Position numbers and translations under genes: made by a program. Of a stretch of 64,000 bases of DNA, positions 43,683-62,286 are shown piece by piece. Under the pieces are notes generated by a model. It made no database searches. It saw only the letters and a list, made by a program, of their open reading frames with translations, and had not been told where the DNA came from. Origin of the DNA: Promethearchaeota archaeon (GTDB lineage: Archaea; Asgardarchaeota; Lokiarchaeia; Sigyniarchaeales; SOKP01); contig JBHLOC010000026.1 of the NCBI GenBank assembly GCA_048940925.1, positions 9,569-73,568 on the forward strand, in the 5' to 3' direction. How positions within the stretch are numbered: position 1 is the stretch's first letter; each line of letters starts with the position of its first letter.

Positions 43683-44063
43683 CTAATTTTCGAGAAGTAG
43701 ATTTTCTAATGCAGTTGATACTTCAGGAGTTAGGTGATGCTCAATTTCACATGATAATTTTTTTATCAATTCGTTATTCTCTAATTTTAGCACATTACTA
43801 AAAAAATCACATAAATTCTGAAAGGTTCGAAATATATCCTGAGCAATTTTTTTTCCTTTTTTAGTTAATCTCAAAGATTTTCTTGGTTTCCAAACTATTA
43901 GTTCTTTTGCTTTCAATTTATATAACATGTTAGTTACCGAGGGGGGTTTAACCTTTAACAATTCTGAAATTTCTGAGTTTGAGACCCAACCTCCTTTATT
44001 ATGTTTTGAAATTAAGTATATTGCCTTTAAATAATCTTCATAACTCTCATTTACTTTTGTCAT
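43683..44063 (-). CDS. DtxR/MntR metal-dependent transcriptional regulator
   Basis: EDYLKAIY, V-x-PPSVT-x-M, LT-x2-G, CEIEHH. Confidence 0.92.
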   Translation of the reverse strand: MTKVNESYEDYLKAIYLISKHNKGGWVSNSEISELLKVKPPSVTNMLYKLKAKELIVWKPRKSLRLTKKGKKIAQDIFRTFQNLCDFFSNVLKLENNELIKKLSCEIEHHLTPEVSTALENLLLEN

Positions 44064-44104
44064 CTTAATCTTGTCCTTTAAAGAATGATAAAATTAAAAA
44101 AAAA

Positions 44105-44473
44105 TTATTCTTCTTTTTCCAATTCAGTTATCCTTTTAGCGATGTCGTCCAATGCGCTTTTAATACCATTCATTTCGGATTCTAGATAGGTTTTCTCTTG
44201 CTTTAACATGGACAATTGATTTTCTTGACTAATTTGTGGTACGACTCCTGGTGTATATGGCGCATAAAAAGGGGTTCTATAACCCCAACCCCAACCTCTT
44301 CCATATCCTAAACCTCTACCACGACCCCAGCCTCTACCACGACCCCAACCTCCACCAAATCCCATCCCAGGACCTTTTGTAAACCCGGGTGTATCATAAC
44401 CAGCACAGTATCCTAATGCTCTCCCAGTCATTGGACCTAATCCTCGAGGTCCAGTTCTATCTCCACCTGGCAT
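44105..44473 (-). CDS. DUF5320 family Gly/Arg-rich protein
   Basis: MPGGDRTGP-x-G-x-GPMTGR-x2-GYC, WGRGRG repeats, C-terminal coiled coil. Confidence 0.88.
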   Translation of the reverse strand: MPGGDRTGPRGLGPMTGRALGYCAGYDTPGFTKGPGMGFGGGWGRGRGWGRGRGLGYGRGWGWGYRTPFYAPYTPGVVPQISQENQLSMLKQEKTYLESEMNGIKSALDDIAKRITELEKEE

Positions 44474-44504
44474 CTTAATTTTTTCACCTCTTATGCATTA
44501 ATTT

Positions 44505-44586
44505 TTATGAATGATTATTCATTTATATTTTCCTATTATAATAATAATTAACTACATATTTAAATATTATGAATATATATTCAAAA
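44505..44586. promoter_or_regulatory. two 20-bp palindromic operators upstream of DUF5320-mntR
   Basis: TTATGAATGATTATTCATTT (44505) and TTATGAATATATATTCAAAA (44567). Confidence 0.75.
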
Positions 44587-44760
44587 TAGATTTTATTAAA
44601 TATTTCATTAAAAATAAATCAAGTCTTATAAATAACTATATTTGCAAAATCAGCTGTTTTATAATTAATATAGAAATAAATAATATATCTACATCATTTC
44701 AATTTGAAATTTTTATTTAACATATAAAATCATTTGATAGAAATGTAGGAATATTTTTTA

Positions 44761-44778
44761 TATTAGGTGTAACTAATA
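44761..44778. promoter_or_regulatory. candidate DtxR/MntR box upstream of feoA1
   Basis: imperfect palindrome TATTAGGTGTAACTAATA. Confidence 0.55.
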
Positions 44779-44855
44779 TTATTTAGCAAAAAAATCACAA
44801 ATGATCTTTATATATTTTAAACTTCAAAAATTGCTAAATAAGGAAAGAAAGTCTC

Positions 44856-45137
44856 ATGGACTCGGAATTTGGGGAATACATCCCAAAATATGATAAAAAA
44901 AAATCAATTTTAAAAACTTTGATTGAATGCCCTATAGGGATAAAATTCAAAGTACAAAGAGTTAATGCAGGTTATCATGCTAAGGGAAGACTTGCTTGTT
45001 TAGGTGTTATTCCCGGAGTTGAAATAATGAAAAAAAAGACTGCTCCCTTTCGAGGACCTATTGAAGTTCTCGTTAAAGGAACCTTATTAGTGATTGGAAG
45101 AGGATTAGCATCTAAAATAGTTGTAAATGATTTATAA
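44856..45137 (+). CDS. feoA: ferrous iron transport protein A
   Basis: RLACLGVIPG...AP-x2-GP...VIGRGLASKI. Confidence 0.92.
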   Translation: MDSEFGEYIPKYDKKKSILKTLIECPIGIKFKVQRVNAGYHAKGRLACLGVIPGVEIMKKKTAPFRGPIEVLVKGTLLVIGRGLASKIVVNDL

Positions 45138-45287
45138 GTCAGAATAATTAAACTTATTCTAATTTTTTTTTAATATATCTCAAATGGTTGATACTCCATG
45201 AATTTAATCTAAGAAAAACTAATTTTTATTTAATTGAGATTAGCTTTCATTTCTAAAATATAAAACCAAGATTTATTAGAAAATAGA

Positions 45288-45413
45288 TTATGTTAAGTAT
45301 CTAAAAGAATATTAAGGTGGGAATAAGTAGACTTCATAAATGGAGCAAAAACCGTTGGAGTTGCGATTTTGAAGGATTTTATTTTAGAAGCAGATGCGAT
45401 TCAATGGTTTTGA
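45288..45413 (+). pseudogene. possible relic of a DsrE-like protein C-terminus
   Basis: LC*VSKRILRWE*VDFINGAKTVGVAILKDFILEADAIQWF*. Confidence 0.35.
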
Positions 45414-45561
45414 AATCTTTATCTTAATATTTTTAGGAAAAGTATCTAATATGTGAGATATATTAGTTATCTCCAATCTAAATATCAAATATTTAAATTT
45501 TAGTTTCATTCTTCTATAAAATCTTAAAATATATTAATGATATTTATAATAATATTTTTAT

Positions 45562-45580
45562 AATTTGTTATGCCTAAATT
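45562..45580. promoter_or_regulatory. candidate DtxR/MntR box upstream of feoA2-feoB
   Basis: reverse strand AATTTAGGCATAACAAATT shares TTAGGYRTAACWAA with the 44761 site. Confidence 0.55.
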
Positions 45581-45639
45581 TATATTTAATTGTTACTTTT
45601 TATTATTAAAAGACTCTTTTTATCTGGTGAATAAGAATA

Positions 45640-45936
45640 ATAAACTCGATAACTGTTGACCGAAAGGATGAAAAATATCAACAAACATCTTTGATTAGAT
45701 GTTTAACGGAATGTAAAAAAGGAGAAATGGTTCATGTCGTAAGTGTTAATGCTGGTTTTAAAGCTAAAAAGCGTCTTGCTAACTTAGGAATTTTACCTGG
45801 AGTGAAAATTATTAAAAAAGAATCCGCTCCATTAAAAGGACCATTAGAAATAAAAGTAAAAGGAACATCCATAGTGATTGGGAGAGGTCTAGCCTCTAAA
45901 ATCTTAGTTAAATGTAATGAAAGATGTGAATTTTAA
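45640..45936 (+). CDS. feoA: ferrous iron transport protein A (ATA start likely; TTG 45691 is the alternative)
   Basis: RLANLGILPG...APLKGP...IGRGLASKI; ATA AAC TCG aligns with ATG GAC TCG of feoA1. Confidence 0.9.
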   Translation: MNSITVDRKDEKYQQTSLIRCLTECKKGEMVHVVSVNAGFKAKKRLANLGILPGVKIIKKESAPLKGPLEIKVKGTSIVIGRGLASKILVKCNERCEF

Positions 45937-46007
45937 TCCATTAGAAGATTTAATATTGGTTATTTTAAAAGATAATTAATATAATAGAAGTTTATGGATA
46001 CTAAATC

Positions 46008-48161
46008 ATGAGTTGTCATTTACCCAAGACACCAAAGCAGAAAAATAAACATGAATATAAGGATACAATTAATATAGCATTAGCTGGTAATCCAAATGTA
46101 GGTAAATCAGTGATATTCAATCAGTTGACAGGGCTGTCACAAACTATTGGAAATTGGCCAGGAAAAACAGTTGAAAAAATGGAAGGGTATATGGATTTTC
46201 TTGATTATCATTTTAATATTGTTGATCTTCCGGGTATATATTCACTATCAACTTATAGTATTGAAGAAATAGTAAGTAGAGAGTATATAGTTTCTGAAGA
46301 AGTTGATTTAATAATAAATGTTATTGATGCTACAAACTTAGAACGAAATTTATTTTTCACATTTCAACTTTTAGAGTTAAATGTTCCAATGATTCTTGCT
46401 ATAAATCAAATGGATATTTTACGTAAGAGAAATATGGATATAGATATCAAGAAACTAGAAAAAATATTCAAACTCCCAGTTCTCCCCCTAGTTGCCATCC
46501 ATGGAGTTGGTGTTCATCAACTTCTTGAAGAAGCAATAGAAATGGTAGCCTATCGTCATCCTCATTTACATCACGATGAAAGTATAAATGAGAAATATAA
46601 GCATCATTCACACAGCTATTCTCGGAAACATCATGTGCATAAAAAGGTGAAATCATGGCCACTTTTAAAAAATGAATTCGAATTTCCTGATTTATCTGCT
46701 ATTCTCACTTTTGGTAAAGAAGTGGAAATAAGAATCAATGAAATTATAGCAAATATTCAAGATAGTCAATTCATTATAGCTAATTCTTACTATCCTTTAA
46801 GATTTATAGCAATTAAACTTCTAGAAAATGATGAAGAAATTAAAAAGTTGATTATAAACCATGAACAAACCTCAAAAATAATTTCGGTGGCTGATAACTT
46901 ACGAAATGAGCTTGAAGAGATACATGGGGAAGATGTAAGTACGATAATCTCTTCAGAAATATATAATAATATTAATAAAATAATACAACAGGTTTTAGTT
47001 GTAAAACCTAAAGAGCAATCTAAGAAAGTGTCTATAGCTGACAAACTTGATCATCTTACCACTCACTCTATTTGGGGTTATGTAATCTTAATCTTGATTA
47101 TTATCGGTATTTATATGTTCACATTTTCAATTGGTGGTTTCTTTGGTGGGCTTATAGAAGACTTTTATGGATTTCTAAGTGATAAAATATATCACATTTT
47201 TGGTCAAGATGATTTAGGGGTTAAGATTTTTTGGGATGGAGGTATGGGAGGATTTGTTGGAGCAGTTGGAGGTGTTTTAGTTTATGTTATTCCTTTTTTC
47301 TTAGTAATTGAAATATTACAAGATTCCGGCTATTTACCAAGAGCAGCATTTTTAATGGATAGGGTCATGCATTCCCTAGGCGTTCACGGTAAAACAATTA
47401 TTCCAATGATATTAGGTTTCGGTTGCAACGTACCAGCTTGTGCAGGTTGTAGGATAATGGAAACCCAAAGAGAAAAAAAGATATCTATTGCCTTAACTTC
47501 CCTTATACCTTGTGCTGCAGTAATGACAGTAGTAATGGGATTAGTGGGGCGATATTTGGGCTTAGGATGGGTGTTTATTCTCTTTATTATAAATTTTTCA
47601 GTTATTTTAATCGTAGGTAAGATTTTAAATAGATTAATGCCAGGGCAATGTACAGAATTAATTATGGAAATGCACGATTATCGTATTCCGAATTATTCTG
47701 TAATTTTGAAGCAAACATGGATAAGGAGTAAAGAATTCATTTATAAAGCAATGCCAATTATAATTGTTACTGGAATTCTGCTGGAGATTTTATTTTTATT
47801 TCGAATATTAGATCCAATAAATATCCTTATTTCACCAATAACAGTTTATTGGTTAGGATTACCACTTATTACTGGAATCTTTTTAATTTATGGAATTCTA
47901 AGGAAAGAATTAACATTAGTTCTTTTAGCTTTATTAGCGAATTCTATGAACTTACCTCTATTGGAATTGTTAAGTCCAATTCAAATGATTATTTTTAGTC
48001 TGGTGACCATGCTTTATATCCCATGTTTTGCTACAGTCGTTTTAATAGCTAAGGAAACTAATTGGAAGTATGCTTTACAAATCGCTCTTCTTGAAATAGG
48101 GTTGGCACTTATGATTGGGGGAATAATTAATTGGGGATTTATTCTTTTTTCTAGTTTATAA
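46008..48161 (+). CDS. feoB: ferrous iron transporter B with a His-rich insert
   Basis: GNPNVGKS, NWPG-x-TVE, DLPG, DSGYLPRAAF, GFGCNVP, YIPC. Confidence 0.96.
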   Translation: MSCHLPKTPKQKNKHEYKDTINIALAGNPNVGKSVIFNQLTGLSQTIGNWPGKTVEKMEGYMDFLDYHFNIVDLPGIYSLSTYSIEEIVSREYIVSEEVDLIINVIDATNLERNLFFTFQLLELNVPMILAINQMDILRKRNMDIDIKKLEKIFKLPVLPLVAIHGVGVHQLLEEAIEMVAYRHPHLHHDESINEKYKHHSHSYSRKHHVHKKVKSWPLLKNEFEFPDLSAILTFGKEVEIRINEIIANIQDSQFIIANSYYPLRFIAIKLLENDEEIKKLIINHEQTSKIISVADNLRNELEEIHGEDVSTIISSEIYNNINKIIQQVLVVKPKEQSKKVSIADKLDHLTTHSIWGYVILILIIIGIYMFTFSIGGFFGGLIEDFYGFLSDKIYHIFGQDDLGVKIFWDGGMGGFVGAVGGVLVYVIPFFLVIEILQDSGYLPRAAFLMDRVMHSLGVHGKTIIPMILGFGCNVPACAGCRIMETQREKKISIALTSLIPCAAVMTVVMGLVGRYLGLGWVFILFIINFSVILIVGKILNRLMPGQCTELIMEMHDYRIPNYSVILKQTWIRSKEFIYKAMPIIIVTGILLEILFLFRILDPINILISPITVYWLGLPLITGIFLIYGILRKELTLVLLALLANSMNLPLLELLSPIQMIIFSLVTMLYIPCFATVVLIAKETNWKYALQIALLEIGLALMIGGIINWGFILFSSL

Positions 48162-48263: not shown

Positions 48264-48870
48264 TTAAAATAAAACATCAAAAAATTCCATATTCTTTACG
48301 TTCTTGAGATTATTTTGAAAATAAATCGTTTTTAATTCTTCTAAAGTCTCTGATTTAAGCTTATCTAAGTGATTATAAAATTTTTCCTTTAATTGGTGGA
48401 TTTCTTCTTTGAATAATTTGATTGAGTTATACACTTTATAAGATCTATTGATTGAAAAAATCTATTCTCTTTTTTCTAACGTCTCAATAGCATTTTTATT
48501 CTTATATTGGCTTTTTTTCATAATAGAACTTAAAATAGGTAAATCAGCATTTTCTAAAGAAAGGAGGGTGGCATACACTTGTATCTCAAGTTCGAAAACG
48601 TTGAATAACTGCATTGCAGAAATAATTTTCTCATTTAAATGTATTACTTTTGATTTCTTTCTTAAAGAAGCATTTGTGATTTTTTCAAAATTTATTTGAT
48701 TATTAATTATAATTTCCCTAGAAGCTAAAACATCATTAAATACGTTTCTACCAATATTAGAACGAATTATTACACTATTCCAGCCGCTTTCAGAAGCGCT
48801 AACGCTTCTTATAGGGATATCTGAAAATTCAGCAATAAATTAAGGCATATAAATGATCTTTTTGCACATA
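48264..48870 (-). pseudogene. degraded FrhB C-terminus fused to a TrmB-like wHTH and coiled coil
   Basis: FIAEFSDI...GWNSVIIRSNIG...ELEIQVYATLLSL-x-NADL-x-ILS...KRE*IF; stops and frameshifts, 5' part absent. Confidence 0.6.
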
Positions 48871-48941: not shown

Positions 48942-50246
48942 TTAATGTGTAGCACATGATATGCAAGGATCAAATGCCCTAATAATAGTTTGAATTTGTT
49001 TTTTTACTAATGTTATGTCCCCTGTTTTTTCATATAATTTTTGAGCATATTTAGTAATCATTTCATTAATAAGTGGAATATTTATTTCAGTCGCAATAAA
49101 AAGTTTCAATTTAATTATTAAGCCGTTATTATCAACATAATAATGATGCATAAGAATTCCTCTTGGAGCTTCAACAAATCCGATACCCTCTGGATTTTTT
49201 ATAGAACTTAAGATAGGAAATTTCTGCTTTATAGATAATGAAGGATTATCTAAAATTTTTAATGCTTGTTCTGTTTCAACTAACATTTCTAATAACTTAA
49301 GAAACTCAGAGAATAGAATATTATTTATCCAAGATTTATCAAAATTCTCAAGATACGAGGAAACTTTATCATTTCCATATGTTTCAATGATTTTAAACCT
49401 TGCAAGTGGACCCGTTAATACATTTTTTTTTTTATTAAAATGAAAATCTATCCCCCGTAAATCAGTATCCTTATCAAAATAAAGAGAATAAGATTTTTCT
49501 TGGAATTCAATTGCTTTTCTTTCCGATTCCGTGATTTTAAAAATACCAGAATATCTATCATAAATTCCAAGATTATTTATTCCAATATAAATTGGATTTG
49601 GAAGTGAATATTCATCTGGTGGAATTGAATTAGAAAAATACTCAATAAAGGATTCAATAATCATTTCTAAATTAATTGAAGCTTTTTGCATATATTTTTG
49701 GGCTATAGTAATATTCTTTCGGGAAGGTGAATAAATCACCCCACCTGGAACCGGAGAAATCAAATGTGCAGATCTCCCACCAAATAAGAATTCAATCTCA
49801 TTTCCAAATTTAATTAATTCAAACAGGCTAGTTGTTAATTGTGGATTGAAATTAATTAAATCATATTGCGAAATAGGTTTTTGGTTAATATTAAAAATGG
49901 TTAGAAGATCTGGTAATGATTGAAAGAAAAAATGCATACAATGCGATTTAATTAACTCTCCACATAACAATAGACGTCTTAAAAGAATTGATTGATCACT
50001 AATTTCTACATCGTATAAATTTTCAATTGCTTTACAACTGGTGATCGCTTGTGACGCATAACATAAACCACATATTCGAGATATTAATTTTGGCATATCA
50101 AGTAATCTTTTACCTATTAAAAATTTTTCAAATCCGCGATATGCTGAAATCTCGAAATCAACATTTGAAACATTGTCATCTTGAAATAATATATTTATAT
50201 TTCCATGCCCCTCAACACGGGTACAAACTTCCACTGTTTTCAGCAT
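48942..50246 (-). CDS. mvhA: group 3 [NiFe]-hydrogenase large subunit with no C-terminal extension
   Basis: TRVEGHG, SRICGLC, EAPRG-x-L-x-H, RAFDPCISCATH-stop. Confidence 0.93.
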   Translation of the reverse strand: MLKTVEVCTRVEGHGNINILFQDDNVSNVDFEISAYRGFEKFLIGKRLLDMPKLISRICGLCYASQAITSCKAIENLYDVEISDQSILLRRLLLCGELIKSHCMHFFFQSLPDLLTIFNINQKPISQYDLINFNPQLTTSLFELIKFGNEIEFLFGGRSAHLISPVPGGVIYSPSRKNITIAQKYMQKASINLEMIIESFIEYFSNSIPPDEYSLPNPIYIGINNLGIYDRYSGIFKITESERKAIEFQEKSYSLYFDKDTDLRGIDFHFNKKKNVLTGPLARFKIIETYGNDKVSSYLENFDKSWINNILFSEFLKLLEMLVETEQALKILDNPSLSIKQKFPILSSIKNPEGIGFVEAPRGILMHHYYVDNNGLIIKLKLFIATEINIPLINEMITKYAQKLYEKTGDITLVKKQIQTIIRAFDPCISCATH

Positions 50247-50253
50247 AATAATA

Positions 50254-51012
50254 TCACCATTTTATTTTTGGTCTTGAAAAACGATAAAATAAATCGTTGT
50301 AATTTTTCAAATCTTCAGAAAAATGAATTAAACTTAAAAGATTGATAATATTTGACGTAAAATCTTTTGAAACAGGTCCCATACAACCTTCACACGGAAT
50401 TCCATATTCTATACATTTATATTCACATCCTTCACGAGTTATGGGGCCTAAACATAAAATTCCTCTTTTTAAAAAGCATTCTGTTTCTTTATCATCAAGA
50501 TTAATTTCGTTCAAATTAGGGTTAATTTTATTTATTTCATTAAAAAAATTAATCTTAACTTCCTCTCTTAATGGACAACCAGCACACATATTTTTTTCAG
50601 ACAACTTAGCATCCTTGTTTTCTATTAATCTAATTAAAAAATTTCCAAATAGCTTTATTGGTGGAGGACAGCCAGGTATTATTCCCTCAATCTCAATATA
50701 ACTAGAGATTGGTTCCGCGATAATTGACCTTGAAAGACTTAGGATCCCTCCGAATGCTGCACAAGAACCTAATGCATAGACCTTTTTAGCACTTTTTCGG
50801 ATTTTTTTTAGAAGTGGAATTTCTTTTTCATTAGAAAGACAACCTTCTATCAGTGCAATATCACAATCTTCGATTTTCTCAGCATCGGAAATAAATGGGA
50901 AATAAATAATCCTTGTTCTTTCAAGGAATTGAGGAAAAATGTCTAATGAAATTAAAGTTGAGATGCAGCCACTGCATGATGTGAGAGAGGCGATAATAAT
51001 TTTAGGCTTCAA
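50254..51012 (-). CDS. mvhG: [NiFe]-hydrogenase small subunit (MvhG-like)
   Basis: TTG after GAGGAG; SCSGC, EG, GSCA-x2-GG, PGCPP, CAGC, CLGP-x-T-x2-GC-x3-C, CEGC. Confidence 0.9.
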   Translation of the reverse strand: MKPKIIIASLTSCSGCISTLISLDIFPQFLERTRIIYFPFISDAEKIEDCDIALIEGCLSNEKEIPLLKKIRKSAKKVYALGSCAAFGGILSLSRSIIAEPISSYIEIEGIIPGCPPPIKLFGNFLIRLIENKDAKLSEKNMCAGCPLREEVKINFFNEINKINPNLNEINLDDKETECFLKRGILCLGPITREGCEYKCIEYGIPCEGCMGPVSKDFTSNIINLLSLIHFSEDLKNYNDLFYRFSRPKIKW

Positions 51013-53551
51013 ATTTAGTCTCCTCTGATAATTGTAAATAAAAATTGTTAACGACTTCAGCAAACTTATTACCCTCAACAGCATTCATATGTTCAAGGAT
51101 AATACGTTTGCTTAAATTCTCTCCTGATATACTTTTTAATATTTTAATTTTATTTTCAATTTTTTCTATTCCATCAATATATCTACAAGCGTCTTTTCTG
51201 CAACCAATTATCATTACTCCATCAAATCCCATTTCGAATGATTTAATAATGAAATTAGTATCAATCCTTCCTGTACAAGGAACTCGAATGATAAATATAT
51301 TAGGATAATATGAAATTTTTTTTAAGCCAGCATTATCAGCAGCAGCATAACCACAAGAGCGACAAGAAAAAGCAATTATTTTTGGACTTCTAGTAAATTG
51401 TGAAAAAACTTCAATTGTTTTAAGTATTTTTTCTGATGTATCTAAATTGAGATCTAATGCATTTGTTGGACAGATACTTACACATGTTCCACATCCTTTG
51501 CATTTAAATTTATCAATACTTACTTTATCAGATTCTAGTGTAATAGCATTATAAGGGCAGATTTGTGAGCATAATCCACATAAACCACATTTACTTTCAT
51601 CAAGTTCTATTCCAGAGAATTCTGCAATTAAATGATCTTTGAAGAGTAATGAGATTACTTTTAATGCAACATTATTAACAGTGGAAATAGTAGAATTGTA
51701 ATTTAATGGACCAAATATTGTTCCTACACCATAAATTCCAGATGCTAATGTTTCTTCACTCATAAATCCATTATCATCTAAAGTAAAATCCATAACTTTT
51801 CTAAATCTTTTTAAATCTTTATTTGGGATAAACTTTAGATTTAAAACGATTAGATCGCTAGGGAATTCGATATTATCAGCTATAACGTAATTTATATCTT
51901 TATTAGATTCAATAATAATTTTATCTGCATATATAAATGCAGGGTTAGTTGTTCTCAATAAAACTTTCTCTCTCTCTTTTAATTTACTTAAATCGTAAAA
52001 AATATTAACTTCACAATTAGGGTTTTTTATTTTAATATCCTCAATATACTTTTCTGCTAAATTTTCAGAATATTCAGCAAGATATTTTGAAGGTCCAATC
52101 TCTTGGATAATAGAAATCGAATTTATGGGTTTTTTATCAGATAATCTAAGAAGTTTCCCTTCAGTAATGCCATCAGAAGCTAATATCCGCTCAAATTCAG
52201 GAGAAGTTATAATATTTTTGTGTGGATCATAATGATAAACCTCTAAATTGCTATAAAAGTCAGAACCAATAGCAATAACTTTCACACCAACTTTTATTTT
52301 GAGTTTTTCGTTTTTTTGAGTTAAATCTATTGCCTTATTAACACATGCTCGTTCACAAATTCTACAATTAAGACAATTTTTTATATCTTCTTCATCAATT
52401 ATTGGGACATATGGATAAGAATGAATAAAGGGGATGTATATGACTTTCCGATTAGTTAAACCAAATTCATATTGATCTGGCTTTTCTATGCTACATACTT
52501 CAATACATTGTTTACATCCAGTACATTTTTTCACATCTATATAACGGGGTTTTTTAATTAAATCAAGCGTGAAATCCCCCACTTCTCCTGATACATTTTC
52601 GATCTCAGTATTTGTAAAAACTTCTATATTTTTTTCATTTACTAATTCACTTATTAATTCAGAAATGAAACATATCGAACAATCGCCCATATTATGAATT
52701 CGGTGCCACCTGGCAACTTTTCCTCCTAATGTTGCCGATTTTTCGATAAGATATACTTTAATTCCAGCTTTAGCTAAATTTAAAGCAAGTGAAATCCCTG
52801 CAATCCCACCTCCTAAGATGGCACAGCTCTTTTCTATTTCGACTCTCTTAATTTTTACTTTTTTTTGTAGGTTAACTCGCTCAACAGCAGCTTCAATTAA
52901 TAGTTTAGCTTTTTCTAAAGAAATTGAGGGCTCTATATCTTTTTCCTTAAATTCATGTACCCAACAACATTGTTCTCTAATATTTGCTATTTCTATATTT
53001 GGTCTATCAATAACTTCATCAAATATTCGTTCAAACAGAAGTTGATGTGTTCTCGGAGAACACGCTGCTATCACAATTTTATTTAAAAAATTATCTTTGA
53101 CCCAATTGGTAATTTTAGGAAAATTTTTTTGTTGACATAAATTATCGAAAACTCTAACTGAAACAACATTTTTTAATTTATTTACATAATTTTCGAGAGA
53201 TATAATATTAATCACTCTTGAAATTTCTGTATTACAATTGCAGATTATAACTCCAATTCTGCTTATTTCGCTCCCTTTTGAATCTAAATACTCATCAATA
53301 TATTCTCCAGAAAGGATTCTCTTATTAAGATTAAGAATTTTTAGTATACGTTTTCCATCCTCCGTAAGAAAATATGATTTTTTGTCTTTATCAATAAGTG
53401 AACTAAGTTTTTTAAGATGAAAATTCAATTGACCCGTTGTTTCCAAACCTAATTTTTCCATTAGCTCTGTATACGGGATATAGCCTGCTTTTTCTAATAG
53501 TAGTAAAATTTTCCTTCTAAAAGGATGTGATAATACAGAATATATATCCAT
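51002..53551 (-). CDS. winged-helix (ArsR-like)-HdrA-MvhD fusion protein
   Basis: LSHP-x-RRKIL...G-x-LNFHLKKL...Y-x-LT-x2-G wHTH; HdrA N-domain (ICNC, ACSP, REQC), GGGIAG, DCSIC, ferredoxins; MvhD (C-x2-CGY, PCTGR, GC-x4-C). Confidence 0.9.
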   Translation of the reverse strand: MDIYSVLSHPFRRKILLLLEKAGYIPYTELMEKLGLETTGQLNFHLKKLSSLIDKDKKSYFLTEDGKRILKILNLNKRILSGEYIDEYLDSKGSEISRIGVIICNCNTEISRVINIISLENYVNKLKNVVSVRVFDNLCQQKNFPKITNWVKDNFLNKIVIAACSPRTHQLLFERIFDEVIDRPNIEIANIREQCCWVHEFKEKDIEPSISLEKAKLLIEAAVERVNLQKKVKIKRVEIEKSCAILGGGIAGISLALNLAKAGIKVYLIEKSATLGGKVARWHRIHNMGDCSICFISELISELVNEKNIEVFTNTEIENVSGEVGDFTLDLIKKPRYIDVKKCTGCKQCIEVCSIEKPDQYEFGLTNRKVIYIPFIHSYPYVPIIDEEDIKNCLNCRICERACVNKAIDLTQKNEKLKIKVGVKVIAIGSDFYSNLEVYHYDPHKNIITSPEFERILASDGITEGKLLRLSDKKPINSISIIQEIGPSKYLAEYSENLAEKYIEDIKIKNPNCEVNIFYDLSKLKEREKVLLRTTNPAFIYADKIIIESNKDINYVIADNIEFPSDLIVLNLKFIPNKDLKRFRKVMDFTLDDNGFMSEETLASGIYGVGTIFGPLNYNSTISTVNNVALKVISLLFKDHLIAEFSGIELDESKCGLCGLCSQICPYNAITLESDKVSIDKFKCKGCGTCVSICPTNALDLNLDTSEKILKTIEVFSQFTRSPKIIAFSCRSCGYAAADNAGLKKISYYPNIFIIRVPCTGRIDTNFIIKSFEMGFDGVMIIGCRKDACRYIDGIEKIENKIKILKSISGENLSKRIILEHMNAVEGNKFAEVVNNFYLQLSEETKFEA

Positions 53552-53659
53552 TACTGAAATCCCTTCTTTTTTATTTTATTTCGAGTAAATAATTCTAAAT
53601 TTATTAAAATTAAAATAGTAAGTTAAGCATTCAATATTGGAATTTCTATGTTACTTCTC

Positions 53660-54808
53660 TTAAATTGCTGAAACTTTTGATGAAGATTTCCATTGTATTA
53701 TTTTATTTTTCATGATTTTATCTGTTCGCTCAATTTTAGATCGTGAGAACTGGGTGATTTTTTCTTTTATTTCGTTTATATTGTTATCATCCAAATTTAG
53801 ACATTCAATTACCCCTGAATTTATCATCTTTCTGATTAGATTTATTCCTTTTCTAGTACGAGTAATCACAGTTGTATATTTATCTAATGATCCTAATCCT
53901 CCAAAAGATATATCAGCATAAATATTAGAGAAATCTCTGCAAGCTCCGCAAGCTGATCGCATGTAATTAGTTAACCTCTCAAAGGGAATATGCACCATTT
54001 TTTGAGTAGTTCCAGTATTTTTTAACTTAATAATTAGATTTTCCTTAATGTTTATTTTTTCAATGTCTTTGAATTTAATATTAAACTGGTTCTCGAATTG
54101 TGTAACTTTAGGTCTATCAAAAAAGAAGTTCTCATAGCAAAATAACCCCAAACTAATATCAATATTTTCTGATGGAATTATTCTTAGATTCTGCATGCAC
54201 CTGATGGTGTAAATCTGGCATGGTGTTCCAACTAATGCTAGTTTCTTAAACCTATAACTCCTTAACTTAGGTAATGAGCTTGTATATGTGTGAAATTTTT
54301 GTAAAGTATCTAAATTTGAAGATAAATCTAATTTAATGCCTGAAGAATTTATTAAGTCCTCTCTACTTTTAGCAATTATAGCTTCTCTCGAAAAGGGAGC
54401 CTGTGTTTTTGACACAATTGCCCCATCAATTACTTTCTTTTCTATCAAATAACTAATAATTGAGTTTACAACGCCCCCATCTGTTCCATATTTTAAAAAT
54501 TCTTTATCTGTAGATCGACAGGAATAAATCTTTTCAATAAACCCTATAGGCGTGGATGAAAAGTCTGAAAATTTATAAGTTTCATTGAGCTCTTCATCTA
54601 GAATATGAGTTTGTGGACATATCAAATAACAAATTCCACACTCAAGGCATTTCTCCCTATTTAAATATTCTGGAGGGGAATTGGGCCTCTTAAATCCAAT
54701 CACATCATTTTCTATTGAATTGCAAAAGCTTACGCATCCTCCACACTGCTGACAAATTCCAAGTTCATGAATTTCTTCAATTAAATCCTTAAATATTTTT
54801 ATTCTCAT
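53660..54808 (-). CDS. FrhB/FdhB-family (F420-binding) protein with N-terminal ferredoxin
   Basis: CQQCGGC, CLECGIC, DGGVV, VGTPCQ, GLFCYENF, C-x2-C-x-DF...ADIS-x-G, RT-x2-G. Confidence 0.9.
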   Translation of the reverse strand: MRIKIFKDLIEEIHELGICQQCGGCVSFCNSIENDVIGFKRPNSPPEYLNREKCLECGICYLICPQTHILDEELNETYKFSDFSSTPIGFIEKIYSCRSTDKEFLKYGTDGGVVNSIISYLIEKKVIDGAIVSKTQAPFSREAIIAKSREDLINSSGIKLDLSSNLDTLQKFHTYTSSLPKLRSYRFKKLALVGTPCQIYTIRCMQNLRIIPSENIDISLGLFCYENFFFDRPKVTQFENQFNIKFKDIEKINIKENLIIKLKNTGTTQKMVHIPFERLTNYMRSACGACRDFSNIYADISFGGLGSLDKYTTVITRTRKGINLIRKMINSGVIECLNLDDNNINEIKEKITQFSRSKIERTDKIMKNKIIQWKSSSKVSAI

Positions 54809-55243
54809 TTTTAAAAATCACCAATTTTAATTTATCAAATCAAAAATCTAACTGATTGTTTTAATAACATTTATGATCTCTATGATAATTATTATTGTCA
54901 AACTATATAAATATGACTATTCTTATATATTATGTGATCATAAATAGTAATATATAAGGATGAAATTACATCTCTTTATAACCTAAATAATAATTATATC
55001 TTAAAAAAAGATCAAACAAAGAACAGATATGGTTATTGAATTAAAAAATGACAAAATAATTTGTCAAAATAATCACAATTTTTCTTATCAGATTTTTTAA
55101 ATTTTTCATAACTCATCACTTAATCGCAGTATAATATTAAAAAACAATTATAATTACTTTTTTGTAAATTATGTACTTTTTTAAATTAAAAATTTGGAAT
55201 TTTATCATAAAAAATGTGGTGATTTTTTTAAAAGGTGGATTAA

Positions 55244-57280
55244 ATGTCTGAAATAGAGACCATTGTAAGAATTGGAGTATATATCTGTAGATGAGGAGTC
55301 AATATCAGTGGTAGTATCGATTGCGATCTGGTTGGAGACTATGTTAAGGCTCTACCAAATATTATTGTTGTGAGAGTAAACGATTTTACTTGTAGTGATC
55401 CAGGACAAAAAATTATTAAAAATGATATTTTAGATTTAGACTTAAATCGGGTTGTTGTTGCCGCTTGTACACCCAAAATTCATGAATCCACCTATCGAGC
55501 AGTTTTAGTTGAAGCTGGATTAAACCCATATTACTTTCAAATGGTTAATCTCCGTGAGCATTGTTCTTTTATTCATTCAAATGATAAAAGAAGTGCTACT
55601 GAAAAAGCTATAAGATTAGTGCAAGCTGGAATAAATCGTGCGCGAAACCTAGAAATTATACCTTATAAAAAAATTTCAATGACAAAAGCAGTATTAGTTA
55701 TTGGAGCTGGAATTGCGGGGATGAATGCTGCATTAGATCTAGCAAATCAAGGGATTCCTATTTTTTTAGTTGAGAAAGAAGCAACTATTGGAGGAAAAAT
55801 GGCACAATTAGATAGAATCTATCCAACTGATGATTGTGCTATTTGAATTCTAGCTCCTATAATGGTTGAAGTATCAAAACATCCAAATATAACTTTGTTT
55901 ACCTATAGTGATGTTGTTGAGTTTAAAGGAATTCCAGGAAATTATAATGTGAAAATTCGTAAAAATCCTCGCTATGTTAATGAATCTAAGTGCACAGGTT
56001 GCGGATTATGCACTGTTAAATGTCCTATAAAGGTACCGAGTGAATTTAATAGAGGTATAGGTGAAAGAGGAGCAATATTTATACCCTTTCCTCAAGCAGT
56101 TCCAAAACTAGCTCTAATTGATAAAAAAGTGTGTATTAACTGTAAAAATTGTGAAAGAATTTGTCCTGCTGAAGCCATTGATTTTAATCAATCAACAGAA
56201 CTTTTTGATTTAAATGTGGGAGCTGTAATTATCGCTACTGGATGGGATGAATATCCAATCATGAAGAAAAATGAATACAAATATGGGATTTATCCAAATG
56301 TAATTACTCAAATCGAATTAGAACGTATGTTGAGTCCTATTGGTCCGACAGAGGGTCATGTATATAGGATCTCTGATGCAAAAATCCCCAAAACAGTAGC
56401 GATGATTCAATGTGTTGGGTCAAGATCCTTAAAAGGAAATCCCTATTGTTCTGGTGTGTGTTGAAATGTTGCTCTTAAAAATGCGCAATTATTAAAACAA
56501 GAATATCCTAAGATGGATATTGCTATATTTTATATAGACATGCGAACATGGGATAAAAGAAATGAAGAATATTATAGAAAAGCGAGAGAAGCGGGAGTAA
56601 TGATGATCCGAGGTAAAGTTGGAGATATAAGAGAGGATCCAAATACAAAGAACCTAAAAATTCGAGCTTCTTCCACCCTAACAAATGATATTATTACAAT
56701 GAATGCAAATTTAGTAGTATTATCAACAGGAATGGTTCCTTCTAAAAATACAGCAAAGATAATTGAGATATTAGGTTTAGAGAAAGATATCAATGGGTTT
56801 TTAACCGAGGTTCATGGATGCTTAAAGCCTCAAGAAACAACTAATATAGGTATTTTTATATGTGGATGTGCTACTGGTCCCAAAAATATCCCTTATTCAG
56901 TATCAACTGCATTAGCTGCAGCAAGTAAAGTATCTACGCTGCTTTCTAAAGATATAATAACTCAAGAATTAATCATTGCTGAAGTAAATGGCTATCTATG
57001 TGTAGGTTGCCATAGATGTGAAAAAGTCTGCAATTATAAAGCCATAAAAGTTAATGGAGAAAATATAGCTGAAGTAAACGACTTACAATGTAAAGGTTGC
57101 GGAGTTTGTGTATCATCATGCCCTGCCCGTGCAATTGATCTTAAATATTATCGAGATAATCAAATAATTGAAGAGGTAAAAGGAATTTGTAGTACTGAAA
57201 TTGAATATAAAGAGGAATATATTGAATCTATTGAACTAATTTGGAAAAAAATTAAAGCATTAGCTCCTTATCAAACATAA
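55244..57280 (+). CDS. hdrA: heterodisulfide reductase subunit A, selenoprotein (678 aa; UGA=Sec at codons 17, 201, 407)
   Basis: three track ORFs plus an upstream piece lie in one frame separated only by TGA at 55292, 55844 and 56462, in contexts ICR-U-G, DCAI-U-ILAP, CSGVC-U; the paralog at 59117 has Cys at all three; RBS AGGTGGA. Confidence 0.93.
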
Positions 57281-57501: not shown

Positions 57502-58617
57502 TTATTTCTTATTTTTTAAAGAAATTAATTTAGTATACCAATCTATTTTCTTATTCTTCCACTCACTAGTCTTATTAAATGGGACTATAAATTGCTCAAT
57601 TATACCTTTTGAAAGCATATTATTTATTAGTTTTTCACCAATGTCCGTTCTAATTAATATCATCGAATATCCTTCTGGTGCTCCAGATGCTCCAACACTA
57701 ATATCTGTAAATCTTCCAGTAAACTCATCACATTCATGGCAATTATTTCTAACTGCGGGATCTAGCGTTTTGATATTGATTTCAAATTCTTTATTATCTC
57801 TTGTTTGGATAAAGAAGTTCTTTTTTATCCATGTTTTCTTGATTTTAGTAGGATCTACATTAGTTTCCCTCTTTAAAATGTCATACAATTGAGTATAAAT
57901 AAAATTCTCAAAACAGAAAAGACCTATTTTGTATTTAATGACATGAGCAGGTTTAATATTCAAAAATTTCATTTTGCTAACAGCCCTACATTGGCAAGGA
58001 GTTCCAACAAATGCCATTCTTAGCTGGTCAATATTAAATATCTTCTTTTTCGTAAGAATCTCTTGCGAAATGTTATACAAGTTTTTTAAAGGGAATATTT
58101 GAGGAGAAATAGAATAACGAGTACCTGCTGATTTAAATAAATCTTCTTTATCAAATATAATTTTTGGAACAGGTTCAAAATTATGGTCAAATTCTGACAC
58201 AATAGCTGCATCAATTTTATGCTTTTCAAATAAATATGTTAGAATTGCTGAAACTACTCCTCCATCTTGTCCAACTTTTTCTAATGCTGAATTTGTTGTT
58301 TTAGCTGCAAGAATATTAACGATGTGTCCAATATGATCTTTAATATAATAGACATCATTTAATTCTGGTAATAATACTTTAGTTTGAGGACAAATGAAAT
58401 AGCAAACACCACATTTTGTGCAATTATTAACACTTTTTTCTGATTTAAAGCCGGGAATATATCCATTCATTTCAATAACATTAAAACCTTGATTTTCACA
58501 ATATGCTACACATGCTCCACACGCACAACATTTATCATTTTTAATTACTTCATTTTCAAGGTCTTCAAATGTTTTTACTTCATTGTTAAAAAAATTCTGA
58601 GTTTCTGATTCAGTCAT
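57502..58617 (-). CDS. FrhB/FdhB-family protein with N-terminal ferredoxin
   Basis: CCACGAC, CTKCGVC, QDGGVV, AGTRY, VGTPCQ, GLFCFENF, CHEC, DISVG. Confidence 0.9.
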   Translation of the reverse strand: MTESETQNFFNNEVKTFEDLENEVIKNDKCCACGACVAYCENQGFNVIEMNGYIPGFKSEKSVNNCTKCGVCYFICPQTKVLLPELNDVYYIKDHIGHIVNILAAKTTNSALEKVGQDGGVVSAILTYLFEKHKIDAAIVSEFDHNFEPVPKIIFDKEDLFKSAGTRYSISPQIFPLKNLYNISQEILTKKKIFNIDQLRMAFVGTPCQCRAVSKMKFLNIKPAHVIKYKIGLFCFENFIYTQLYDILKRETNVDPTKIKKTWIKKNFFIQTRDNKEFEINIKTLDPAVRNNCHECDEFTGRFTDISVGASGAPEGYSMILIRTDIGEKLINNMLSKGIIEQFIVPFNKTSEWKNKKIDWYTKLISLKNKK

Positions 58618-58635
58618 TATAATTTTCTCTTTTTT

Positions 58636-59115
58636 TTAATTGGATTCCAATTCAATTAATCCTACTTTTTTAGGTATTTTAAATTCTCCTAATTCTAAAA
58701 TTGTCTTTGTAAAATCTTTAATTAACTCTGAAAATTGTTTTCCCTCACTTGCTGAAATTGAGTGTAATTGAAATCTATTCTCATTAATTCCAATATATTT
58801 TATCAATTTCTTTAAATGATGCATTCTGACTTCGGTATATTCGAATCCTTTCATATAATGACAATCTCCTTTATGGCACCCTATAATTAATACTCCATCT
58901 ATTCCATTGTTAAAAGCCCTTAGAACAAATGCTGGTTCAACGCGGCTAGAGCACATTACCCTAATAATTCTGATATTCGGGGGATATTGGAACCTAGAAA
59001 CTCCTGCTAAATCTGCACCTGCATAACTACACCAATTACAACAAAAAACTAAAATATTTGGATCAAATTCATCATTTCCTTTTCTTTTAATTTTTAACAG
59101 TGAATATCCCCCCAA
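58636..59115 (-). CDS. mvhD: hydrogenase iron-sulfur subunit MvhD (all-Cys form)
   Basis: FCCNWCSYAGAD, RVMCSSRV, GCH-x-GDCHY, ISASEG; start possibly CTG 59100. Confidence 0.95.
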   Translation of the reverse strand: MGGYSLLKIKRKGNDEFDPNILVFCCNWCSYAGADLAGVSRFQYPPNIRIIRVMCSSRVEPAFVLRAFNNGIDGVLIIGCHKGDCHYMKGFEYTEVRMHHLKKLIKYIGINENRFQLHSISASEGKQFSELIKDFTKTILELGEFKIPKKVGLIELESN

Positions 59116-59116
59116 A

Positions 59117-62100
59117 TTAAGTCACTTTATAACTAATTAAATCTATACCAGTTAATAAGTCAATCATCTTATTAATCTGAAATTTATTAAAATTATTTTG
59201 ATTTATAGCGCCATTTGAACATTCTACGACGCAAGCTCCGCAACCTTTACAAAGAACTTCAATTATATGAGCCTTTCTTAAAGTTGTAGTGTATAAACCG
59301 ATTTGTTTACTAATTTCAACTAATTCGATAGCATTATACGGGCAGATTTCAATACATGTGCCGCATCCTATACATTTTTCTTCGTTTATATAAGAAGTTA
59401 TACATTCGGTTTCTATTTCCCCTTTAACCATTATTATTGCCGATCTACCAGCAGCTCCATATGCTTGAATAATACTTTCGCCTATCCATTTTGGCCAATG
59501 AGCGCCCCCACATAAGAAAATACCTTCTGTAGCAAAATCTATCGGCCTAAGTTTCGCATCAGCTTCTAAGAAAAATCCATCTTTATTTGTTGATACTTTT
59601 AGAAGTTTTGCCAATTGTTCAGTGCCATTAGCAGGAACTTTAGGGGTAGCCAATATTAATAGATCAGTATTATATTCTATTTCTGTTTGAGCACCTATAT
59701 TTTTATATAAAATGAGAAATTTACCATTTTCATCACTGATTTTAATATCATCAATTGAACGGTATTTTTCATAAATAACTTTTTTTCGAAGTCCTCGCCA
59801 TAGATTTTCAGCATTTAAATCTGAGAGTTGAAACTCTCTATATAAAATATGAATATGAGCATTAGGATTGATGCTTAATAATTTTTCAATATTTTTTAAT
59901 GCTACTCCGCAACAAATATTTGAACAATAAGTTTTAATATCAACATCATCATTAAATTCGTTTCTTCTTTGATCTACACATAATATTATGGTTGCATCGT
60001 TAAATCCTGGAACGTCTACATCTTTCATTGCTGTTAATTCTGTTTGGGTAAGCACGCGTCTAGGATATTTTTCTGATAAATCTACCCATCTATTTGTCTT
60101 AATTTGCTTGGTTCCCGTAGCTACTATTATTGTACCCACTTTGAATATTTGATCTTTTGATTCATCTTGAATATTCTTAATTCTAACCTGATAATTTCCA
60201 ACATAACCTTGAATATCAACCACTTCTGTGTTAAATAAAATATGAACATTAGTTCTGTTTTTCAAATCATTAATTTCCCGTAAAATTTCATTTTTTGTAA
60301 TAGGTATATAATATAAATCAATAAATTCGAGTGCAACGCCTCCAAGAAAAGATTTTTTCTCTACGAGATAAATTTCAAATCCTTGGTTTGCTAAGTTATG
60401 GGCAGCACTGATGCCTGCTATTCCACCACCAATTATTAGAGTTGATTTTTTAACTTTAACTTTAATGTTTTCTAATGGTTTTAAATTAATTACTTTTGCT
60501 AAATACATTCTAATTAAATCGCATGCTTTTTTAGTTGCTTTTTTGGGTTCATTTTGATGAACCCAAGAATCTTGATTTCTTATATTTACTAGTTCAAATA
60601 AAAATGGATTCAATCCTGCCTCTCTTAAGGTTTTCTTGAAAAGTTGTTCATGAGTTCGAGGAGTACAAGAAGCAACTATAAATCTATTAAGATTATATTT
60701 TGTTATTAATTTCTTAATTCGTTCTTGGGAATCAGAACTACAAGAATACATATTTTCTTCAACATGAACTACATATGGCAATGTTGAAACATAATCTACT
60801 ACTTCATTAACATTAACAATACCTCCGATATTAATTCCGCATTGACAAACCAAAATACCTACACGAGGTTCATCTTCTGGTTTTACTGGTATTTCTGGAG
60901 GATATCTTAATTCCTTTATATTTTGAAATCTAACAGAATATAATTTTTCACTAATTTTTGCAGCGCAAGCAGAACCTTCAGCGACTGCCATTTGAATATC
61001 ATTAGGTTTTCTAGAATAACCTGTCACGAATACATTCTTATTTTCAAGTAAGATTATATCTTCTTCACGAATATATCCTAAATCGCTACATTCTACATTA
61101 AGTTGTTCTAATAGTTTATAGTAAGAGGGAGCTGGAGATAATGCACTAGCTAATACGGCCATATCTACTTCAAAAGTCCCAACTTTTTGTTTGTCAACAT
61201 CCTCATAATATAATTTTAGCTTTCCGTTATCAAAATTTTCTTTAATATATGAAACATGACCATTAACATAGTTAACTTTATATTCGTTTTTACTTTTTTC
61301 AATAAATTCATAAAAATTTTTACCTTTAGCTCTGATTTCTGTATTAAAAATATAACATTCAATGTTTGGATCATGTTCTTTAACAACAATCGCTTCTTTA
61401 GCCGAATTCATACAACATATAGCAGAACAATATTTTTTACATTCAGGATGATGAACATCTCGAGATCCGACACATTGTATAAATGCAATAGAATGAGGAT
61501 GTTTTTTATCATCTAATCTTATAATTTGACCACCAGTAGGTCCATTTGCAGATAAAAGACGCTCAAATTGCATACTTGATAAGACATTAGGAGAAGAACC
61601 TGCAAAAAAATCATATACTTCTGGCATTTTTTGAGTATATCCTGTAGCAATAACAATAGCTCCTACCTTTAAATTTATTTCTTCTGGTTTTTGTAAAAAA
61701 TCTATCGCATCTGCATCACATACTTTAGCACAAAGACCACATATTTGATAATTAAAATATAAACATTTTGTATCATCAATAAGATAAACTGGAGGCACTG
61801 ACGATGGAAAAGGAATATATATAGCACCTCGAGTTTTTAAATGGGTATCAAATTCGCTAGGAATCCCTTTAACTGGACAAACTTTTTCACATTCTCCACA
61901 GCCTTTACAAACATCTTCTTTAACATATCTTGGTTTTTTTACAACAGTAATAGTATAATTTCCAACTGATCCTTCAATTTTTTTAACGTAAGAATAAGAA
62001 ATTAATTCTATATTTGGATTTCTATAGATATCAACCATTTTTGGAGCTAAAATGCACAAACTACAATCAAGTGTTGGAAATATTTTATCTAGTTGAGCCA

Positions 62101-62230
62101 TAGTTCCACCTATTGTTGGTTTAATTTCAACTAAATATACTCTAAAACCTAATTTAGTGAGATCTAATGAAGTCTGTATACCTGCAATTCCACCTCCTAT
62201 TACCAAAACACTACTCTGCAATTTCAACAT
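59117..62230 (-). CDS. hdrA: large HdrA-like protein with two FAD modules
   Basis: GGGIAG twice; LDKIFPTLDCSLC, QCVGSR, YCSAICC; internal CQCG domain; second YCSNICC; terminal 2x[4Fe-4S]. Confidence 0.93.
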   Translation of the reverse strand: MLKLQSSVLVIGGGIAGIQTSLDLTKLGFRVYLVEIKPTIGGTMAQLDKIFPTLDCSLCILAPKMVDIYRNPNIELISYSYVKKIEGSVGNYTITVVKKPRYVKEDVCKGCGECEKVCPVKGIPSEFDTHLKTRGAIYIPFPSSVPPVYLIDDTKCLYFNYQICGLCAKVCDADAIDFLQKPEEINLKVGAIVIATGYTQKMPEVYDFFAGSSPNVLSSMQFERLLSANGPTGGQIIRLDDKKHPHSIAFIQCVGSRDVHHPECKKYCSAICCMNSAKEAIVVKEHDPNIECYIFNTEIRAKGKNFYEFIEKSKNEYKVNYVNGHVSYIKENFDNGKLKLYYEDVDKQKVGTFEVDMAVLASALSPAPSYYKLLEQLNVECSDLGYIREEDIILLENKNVFVTGYSRKPNDIQMAVAEGSACAAKISEKLYSVRFQNIKELRYPPEIPVKPEDEPRVGILVCQCGINIGGIVNVNEVVDYVSTLPYVVHVEENMYSCSSDSQERIKKLITKYNLNRFIVASCTPRTHEQLFKKTLREAGLNPFLFELVNIRNQDSWVHQNEPKKATKKACDLIRMYLAKVINLKPLENIKVKVKKSTLIIGGGIAGISAAHNLANQGFEIYLVEKKSFLGGVALEFIDLYYIPITKNEILREINDLKNRTNVHILFNTEVVDIQGYVGNYQVRIKNIQDESKDQIFKVGTIIVATGTKQIKTNRWVDLSEKYPRRVLTQTELTAMKDVDVPGFNDATIILCVDQRRNEFNDDVDIKTYCSNICCGVALKNIEKLLSINPNAHIHILYREFQLSDLNAENLWRGLRKKVIYEKYRSIDDIKISDENGKFLILYKNIGAQTEIEYNTDLLILATPKVPANGTEQLAKLLKVSTNKDGFFLEADAKLRPIDFATEGIFLCGGAHWPKWIGESIIQAYGAAGRSAIIMVKGEIETECITSYINEEKCIGCGTCIEICPYNAIELVEISKQIGLYTTTLRKAHIIEVLCKGCGACVVECSNGAINQNNFNKFQINKMIDLLTGIDLISYKVT

Positions 62231-62286
62231 TTATCATAGCTCCTTTAAATTTGTAGACTTGTTAATTCTAGTTTATAAGAATAATT

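Follow-up and report, generated by a model that had tools for sequence, protein, structure and literature searches.

A winged-helix HdrA-MvhD subunit of an Asgard [NiFe] hydrogenase that probably controls its own operon

In this work, we analyzed a 64,000-nucleotide stretch from a Promethearchaeota archaeon (Lokiarchaeia, Sigyniarchaeales; assembly GCA_048940925.1, contig JBHLOC010000026.1, positions 9,569 to 73,568), hereafter the window, whose own coordinates are used throughout. Between positions 48942 and 54808 lie the four genes of a putative [NiFe]-hydrogenase operon, the second of which encodes an 849-aa protein that joins a winged helix-turn-helix (wHTH) to the redox modules HdrA and MvhD. 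This enzyme probably controls its own genes, a situation not described before for a hydrogenase. The genes and the parts of the fusion protein are the following, all on the minus strand:

48942-54808, minus strand: the four genes, namely the frhB-like gene, the mvh fusion gene, mvhG and mvhA
53660-54808, minus strand: FrhB-like gene, the first of the operon in the window clade, with 2x[4Fe-4S], FrhB_N and FrhB_C domains
51002-53551, minus strand: wHTH-HdrA-MvhD fusion gene, 849 aa
53312-53551, minus strand: winged helix (ArsR/HxlR-like, DUF7347), residues 1-80, from Pfam, AlphaFold2 (AF2) and Foldseek
53261-53311, minus strand: flexible linker, residues 81-97, with an AF2 predicted local distance difference test (pLDDT) below 50 at residues 82-94; the HdrA alignment begins later
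51407-53260, minus strand: HdrA body, residues 98-715, with the N-domain cluster, the flavin adenine dinucleotide (FAD) site, and the inserted and C-terminal ferredoxins
52052-52108, minus strand: relic of the HA4 motif, residues 482-500, all four Cys gone
51005-51406, minus strand: MvhD domain, residues 716-849, from Pfam FlpD and the PDB MvhD chains
50254-51012 (longer open reading frame, ORF, to 51084), minus strand: mvhG, hydrogenase small subunit, Pfam Oxidored_q6 and NCBIfam VhuG-like
48942-50246, minus strand: mvhA, [NiFe] large subunit, with RICGLC and a C-terminal DPCISCATH

The fusion of an ArsR-like winged helix to HdrA and MvhD had been noticed in a first-pass annotation of this DNA, and its extent is confirmed by the ORFs, by Pfam and by the PDB chains. 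At the N-terminus, DUF7347 matches residues 2-71 with 40.8 bits (cut-off 27.6), and HTH_24 scores marginally below its threshold (21.0 against 21.9). At the other end, residues 725-841 belong to FlpD/MvhD (PF02662; 115.6 bits, cut-off 22.3), the region to which the PDB MvhD chains align at E about 1e-22 (5odc_D at E 4.6e-22). In a phmmer search against PDB, the solved HdrA chains 8rvu and 5odc matched at E values from 1e-100 to 1e-102, their own residues 2-10 falling on residues 95-98 of the query. Because these chains align from their own start onward, residues 1-94 are an addition to an HdrA that is complete in itself. Of the NCBIfam models HdrA2 scored best, with 564 bits against a cut-off of 1100, and further HdrA-type models also stayed below their cut-offs (403 against 1300 and 360 against 1400). 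The full-length AF2 model has a mean pLDDT of 87 and shows the winged helix confidently folded, held on a disordered tether and not packed against the HdrA body.

The fusion gene overlaps mvhG, which is followed by mvhA, as had also been annotated. The overlap amounts to 11 nt with a TTG start of mvhG at 51012, which is probably the true one: a GAGGAG Shine-Dalgarno sequence precedes this codon, the same overlap is found in orthologous loci, and the orthologues of mvhG encode about 250 aa. Both hydrogenase subunits resemble group 3 enzymes, the best NCBIfam matches of MvhA being the group 3 families ShyA, VhuA and FrhA; in the same comparison MvhA did not come out as a group 2b large subunit. 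MvhA carries the [NiFe] ligand motifs RICGLC and DPCISCATH and terminates exactly at the latter, without a C-terminal extension for endopeptidase cleavage, and the orthologues are of similar length (433-438 aa). The operon contains neither hdrBC nor a histidine kinase gene.

A search with residues 1-97 recovered 155 clusters (90% identity) of about 849 aa with DUF7347 and FlpD, labeled as Promethearchaeota or as Loki-, Hel-, Hermod-, Hod- and Thorarchaeota. Relatives of the wHTH occur in 166 species-representative genomes, of which the best 80 were kept, and at least 80 species-level genomes of Promethearchaeota carry the fusion. The N-domain was matched in 155 of 400 sampled Asgard genomes, where fused open frames of 840-900 aa appear in at least eight families, and an exhaustive profile-free search added full-length fusion proteins at a mere 37-41% identity, one cluster of which is from Bathyarchaeia. 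The same architecture in so many clusters and species genomes rules out an assembly chimera, and wherever the sequence extends far enough downstream, mvhG-mvhA come after the fusion gene. In its own genus the fusion is present in 39 of 53 genomes; several of the 14 without it are at least 97% complete, and the operon is therefore accessory.

In the first-pass annotation the fusion protein was taken for a catalytically rewired HdrA that binds its own hydrogenase and turns H2/F420 redox state into DNA binding, a one-component analogue of bacterial regulatory hydrogenases. As a dedicated sensor, it would form with MvhAG an archaeal complex that senses H2 or redox state and has transcriptional control as its sole job. 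The substitutions on which this proposal was built, QCVGSR to QEIGPS and YCSxxCC to YLAEYSE, do stand. In the alignment, HCVGSR...YCSRVCC of solved HdrA corresponds to QEIGPS...YLAEYSEN in the fusion with zero Cys remaining, and the HA4 motif C-x(12-16)-C-x3-CC is absent from the 849-aa protein. Likewise, the two neighboring HdrAs said to retain the motif could be identified as a selenocysteine HdrA (Sec-HdrA) at 55244-57280 and a tandem HdrA at 59117-62230, both with HA4 intact. Among 76 members of the Promethearchaeota clade of 849-aa proteins, the HA4 positions hold between none and three drifting, unconserved Cys. Such a loss throughout the clade would suit a dedicated sensor, as would the tail-less MvhA and the dispensability of the gene within its genus.

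Nevertheless, other features of the protein are difficult to reconcile with that proposal. All four HA4 Cys are kept, as in canonical HdrAs, by divergent fusions (P0124, P0125, P0126 from Bathyarchaeia, and P0129), which come from Bathyarchaeia and other Asgard families plus P0129, so the fusion is older than the loss of HA4. The loss is then a later, clade-specific event and not what defines the winged-helix fusion. Moreover, the annotated retention of GxGxxG, of the N-terminal Cys domain, of DCSIC and of both ferredoxin modules is borne out by conserved columns. The FAD Rossmann fold is matched by Pfam NAD_binding_8 and its G247, G249 and G252 are invariant; the HA3 ligands C104, C106, C139 and C164 are invariant or nearly so, as are all 16 Cys of the inserted and C-terminal 2x[4Fe-4S] ferredoxin domains; and in the retained Cys pair of DCSIC, C294 is nearly invariant. 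With MvhD and the [NiFe] ligands kept as well, purifying selection acts on the cofactor sites other than HA4, and this speaks for a functional redox protein. The group 3-like rather than group 2b large subunit points the same way. In Bathyarchaeia, genes similar to nuoE, nuoF and nuoG and a gene for a 477-aa Oxidored_q6-ferredoxin protein precede an HA4-intact fusion operon (L002:1828-6629), an arrangement that suggests a NAD(P)H-linked hydrogenase complex; such a NuoEFG-like diaphorase module is the context of an enzyme, not of a sensor.

What the clade-specific change means for catalysis can be approached from the role described for HA4, which relays the high-potential electron from FAD to the active site of HdrB and forms the exit towards HdrBC (PMC13580544). 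Its loss in Promethearchaeota suggests that the enzyme no longer feeds HdrBC. Most likely, the clade enzyme links H2/H+ with ferredoxin, plus F420 where FrhB is present, and not with heterodisulfide. The FrhB-like partner had been proposed as part of the system. The gene is indeed there upstream of the fusion, but it is no conserved part of the system: orthologues with 66-84% identity stand directly upstream in roughly 25 of 84 loci, those of the closest relatives only. A link to F420 is plausible here, and genes for CofD and CofE were found in the source genome.

The winged helix itself has the properties of a DNA-binding domain. AF2 gives residues 1-80 an H-H-H-H-E-E-H topology at pLDDT 83-96 (85 for the domain modeled in isolation), and the nearest folds found by Foldseek are all DNA-binding regulators: YodB, NolR bound to DNA, CadC, A. 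fulgidus ArsR, HlyU and BigR, with template modeling (TM) scores of 0.6-0.7. In a comparison of 76 species it came out as the best conserved part of the protein (mean identity 81%, the other domains 67-80%), and the recognition helix TGQLNFHLK is at least 95% invariant. The domain carries a net charge of +6, the remaining 752 residues together only +1. Together with the palindrome described below, these properties make DNA binding by the winged helix a well-founded prediction. A search for stand-alone homologues among shorter proteins gave only contig-end fragments of the same fusion; weak winged-helix matches of 250-400 aa occur in other Asgard families.

Winged helices can also serve as protein-protein modules, in archaea as in eukaryotes, and this general property would allow the domain to be structural, docking or dimerizing the hydrogenase complex while a separate regulator encoded elsewhere acts on the DNA. 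Some conservation of the linker (mean identity 76%) is in keeping with such a role. On the other hand, the basic charge, the invariant recognition helix, the identity of the nearest folds and the disordered tether that leaves the domain unpacked in the AF2 model are not what a docking module would lead one to expect, and the DNA upstream of the operon adds to these points.

There we found an 18-bp palindrome, TGAYAA-N6-TTRTCA, which upstream of orthologous operons lies 3-4 nt after the TATA box. In the window it is found in the 435-bp gap that separates the frhB-like gene from the divergent Sec-HdrA gene:

54904-54911, minus strand: TATA box of the operon promoter, TTTATATA, read directly from the sequence
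54883-54900, no strand: palindrome 1, operator-like, exact, 3 nt past the TATA box, with 74 nt between it and the ATG of the frhB-like gene; its counterpart in most orthologous loci is at about -92 from the operon start
55049-55066, no strand: palindrome 2, operator-like, exact, in the divergent intergenic region; its counterpart in orthologous loci is at about -215 to -260
55073-55090, no strand: palindrome 3, operator-like, with one mismatch, the site at -282
55244-57280, plus strand: Sec-HdrA gene with three in-frame TGA codons, divergent from the operon and sharing the palindrome-bearing intergenic region

The copies at 54883 and 55049 are the only exact ones in the 64 kb of the window, the copy at 55073 being the one with a single mismatch. 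In the 4.8-Mb genome there are five exact copies, against three for a backwards control, and the other three (on contigs C41, C73 and C77) are intragenic or in a convergent gap. Within the genome the palindrome is thus all but confined to the fusion operon. Among 84 related loci (1.0 Mb), 77 of the 96 exact palindromes fall within 400 nt upstream of the operon start, usually paired, one at around -92 and the other at around -215 to -260; an exact copy is present in 59 of 81 loci, and if one mismatch is allowed the count rises to 74 of 81. When every 5-mer dyad with a spacer of 0-12 was enumerated without bias, GATAA-N6-TTATC came first, 142-fold enriched. The location fits the action of an archaeal repressor, and size and symmetry are as would be expected for a winged-helix dimer.

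The same motif recurs at the fusion promoter in lineages whose winged helix is only 37-59% identical. Two copies stand just upstream of the fusion gene in L004, with one more after mvhA, a count reached by none of 200 shuffles, and two one-mismatch copies upstream in L093, reached by one of 200. Among distant families, f21 has copies at -97 and -254, f19 at -57 to -62 and f31 at -143. The neighboring genes in all of these lineages are unrelated and the GC content differs, so that the palindrome accompanies the fusion gene across unrelated contexts, down to fusion proteins of 37-41% identity. No other transcription-factor gene was consistently present across the fusion loci. We take the winged helix of the fusion as the probable binder because it is the only DNA-binding domain that goes with the palindrome through all contexts. 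This association, together with the near uniqueness of the palindrome to the fusion locus in the genome, makes the purely structural role of the winged helix unlikely, even if the fusion also occurs in several lineages in which the canonical palindrome is lacking.

One further candidate for the binder was a Promethearchaeota-specific protein of about 209 aa (L063:6062-6691, minus strand), with homologues in 49 of the 84 loci and usually divergent from the fusion gene. It was rejected, being absent from the window clade, L004 and L093; it matches no Pfam family, and its matches are Promethearchaeota hypothetical proteins only. Its gene often precedes those of proteins with an Mpt_N domain (the N-terminal domain of methylene-tetrahydromethanopterin dehydrogenase). 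In L029 (506-2823), L032, L034, L035 and L039, this pair of genes, for the protein of about 209 aa and the Mpt_N protein, has its own palindrome about 87 nt upstream, and some loci bear a further palindrome ahead of an operon in which a gene for an unknown protein of 217 aa is joined by one for an Mpt_N-domain protein of 558 aa.

The distribution of the palindrome also bears on the dedicated sensor. The source genome encodes a second [NiFe] hydrogenase on contig C48 (L091:5154-9491, minus strand), with a 440-aa small subunit, a 435-aa large subunit, HdrC and HdrB, which could be the metabolic enzyme. However, that locus contains only chance-level matches with two mismatches. A four-protein sensor regulating mainly itself makes little sense, and we consider this proposal improbable. 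Since the palindrome lies only at the operon's own locus, autoregulation by a bifunctional enzyme is favored over control of other hydrogenases in the manner of HupUV.

Based on these data, the interpretation we prefer, to which we assign a probability of about 0.6, is that the fusion protein is both a working electron-transfer subunit of the hydrogenase and the repressor of its own operon, a trigger enzyme comparable with PutA. HdrA and MvhD in the 849-aa chain would form the flavin/iron-sulfur subunit of a soluble group-3-type [NiFe] hydrogenase, with MvhG and MvhA as partners, and in the window clade an FrhB-like module, possibly F420-linked, would be added to the complex. The HdrA dimer would bring two N-terminal winged helices together, and this pair would bind the palindrome that separates the TATA box from the expected start of transcription, and also the second copy, which lies 120-170 bp further upstream, in the divergent promoter. 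Occupancy would block the recruitment of RNA polymerase and repress the operon, and the divergent neighbor too. Finally, the flexible linker would tie the winged helix to the HdrA N-domain with its mobile HA3, so that redox, catalytic or assembly state could alter DNA binding. We infer all three central elements, that is, the winged helix as the binder of the palindrome, repression through binding and its gating, and gating by redox state is purely conjectural.

Some observations weigh against this interpretation. No palindrome with at most one mismatch was found at the promoter in f28 (0 of 4 loci), f4 (0 of 3), f6 or Bathyarchaeia, where half-sites (TTGTCA/GACAA) in scattered positions are all that is seen. 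There is no Cys in residues 1-97 and the domain has no metal or thiol effector site, so no gating mechanism is visible in it. The palindrome could also be bound by a conserved regulator encoded elsewhere. The capacity of winged helices for protein-protein contacts belongs here as well, and in a few loci a second fusion of an enzyme with a helix-turn-helix (HTH), FrhB-TrmB, could be what binds DNA.

The absence of any visible sensing residue leads to a simpler version of autoregulation, in which free, unassembled or excess protein would repress the operon and so adjust the dosage of subunits, whatever the state of H2 or redox. It draws on the same evidence for DNA binding as the bifunctional trigger enzyme. 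Nevertheless, the N-domain to which the tether is joined moves during catalysis, its cluster HA3 having been described as a moving "shuttle" (PMC13580544), and this offers an obvious, conceivable route for coupling. We regard regulation by dosage alone as less likely. The strongest form of the trigger-enzyme interpretation, in which the [NiFe]-hydrogenase complex is itself a transcription factor and the state of H2, ferredoxin or F420 directly sets operator occupancy via the HA3 arm, can be put forward only tentatively.

The divergent Sec-HdrA, which may be co-regulated with the fusion operon, was split by ORF calling into three ORFs; its presumptive selenocysteines are U17 in CxUG, U201 in DCAIU and U407 in CSGVCU. 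The source genome holds many HdrA paralogues, several with in-frame TGA codons. Beyond Sec-HdrA lies a minus-strand cluster (57502-63537) for an HdrB/C-like CCG protein of 416 aa, the tandem HdrA-HdrA of 1037 aa, a stand-alone MvhD of 159 aa and a second FrhB-like protein of 371 aa, a type of cluster that adjoins the hydrogenase operon in many relatives (e.g. L006). The segment 63700-64000 had been named as a second place to look for DNA binding; upstream of this cluster, between 63538 and 64000, there is no palindrome with at most one mismatch.

Downstream of mvhA, a decayed second enzyme-HTH fusion is found at 48264-48839 (minus strand): an FrhB C-terminus and a TrmB-like HTH remain, the frame contains a stop codon, and the N-terminal two thirds have been lost. 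In relatives the protein is intact and has 478 aa, Fer4-FrhB_N-FrhB_C-TrmB (L009:11812-13248, L015:9859-11295 and L044:856-2292). In L006 (11685-13659) and four to six further loci, mvhA is followed by a gene for an HATPase_c membrane protein and a response-regulator/AsnC-HTH gene; a link through a HoxJ-like histidine kinase was discarded, as no more than 5-7 of 84 loci have the HATPase_c gene after mvhA. Next in the window comes an iron-uptake unit (43683-48161) with a DtxR-type repressor (43683-44063), DUF5320, FeoA (44856-45137) and FeoB (46008-48161). The 717-aa ORF at 46008 is this FeoB and no HdrA.

Models of Asgard syntrophy and of eukaryogenesis give hydrogen metabolism a central place. 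Our analysis supplies a conserved candidate regulator and, with exact coordinates, its candidate operator. If the proposed binding takes place, this would be the first hydrogenase or Hdr subunit known to bind DNA, as far as the literature searched shows, and an archaeal counterpart of PutA-type trigger enzymes; if binding responds to H2, Lokiarchaeia-type Asgard archaea would possess a direct circuit from H2 to transcription without a kinase or a separate regulator. Taken with the FrhB-TrmB fusions, it would suggest a broader tendency to couple redox enzymes directly to DNA. An annotation should also be corrected, since the Promethearchaeota genes taken for MvhADG-HdrABC lack the cluster facing HdrBC and probably do not bifurcate onto heterodisulfide. 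Published work on Asgard hydrogenases treats such genes as MvhADG-HdrABC, a paper on archaeal fusions notes HdrA-HdrA-MvhD only, and in the literature searched we met neither a winged helix on HdrA nor DUF7347.

Among known systems, the MvhADG-HdrABC complex of methanogens (5odc, 8rvu) shares with the operon the HdrA fold with FAD, HA3, the Cys pair and the inserted and C-terminal ferredoxins, as well as MvhD and group-3-type MvhG and MvhA encoded together. Here, however, HdrA and MvhD form one polypeptide with a winged helix added at the N-terminus, the HA4 route to HdrC and HdrB has been lost in the clade, hdrBC is missing from the operon, and the NCBIfam HdrA scores are far below the cut-offs. 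HdrA2 of Methanosarcina (NCBIfam NF040770) has the same order of fusion, HdrA-MvhD, but the known HdrA2 proteins are without a winged helix, keep HA4 and work with HdrB2C2. The HdrA2 family is linked to F420, and the operon studied here includes an FrhB-like gene.

With regard to regulation, the likeness is to enzymes whose polypeptide includes a DNA-binding domain, such as PutA of enteric bacteria, BirA and NadR, and repression of the own operon through sites in a divergent promoter would be a further parallel. In PutA the redox state of the flavin switches the function. The folds are unrelated (ribbon-helix-helix in PutA, winged helix here), the chemistry is different, and one system is bacterial, the other, with its predicted regulation, archaeal. 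The group 2b hydrogenases HupUV/HoxBC with HoxJ/HupT resemble it in that the state of a hydrogenase would be relayed to transcription; they signal through a histidine kinase and a response regulator and control other hydrogenase operons, whereas here a DNA-binding domain is fused directly to a subunit of a group-3-like enzyme and the palindrome is at its own locus only. As for the winged helix, it shares with ArsR/SmtB and HxlR regulators (YodB) the fold, at TM 0.6-0.7, and an HL-containing recognition helix, and the 18-bp palindrome fits a dimer of this kind; unlike those regulators, it has no metal or thiol sensing site and is fused to a redox enzyme of 750 residues.

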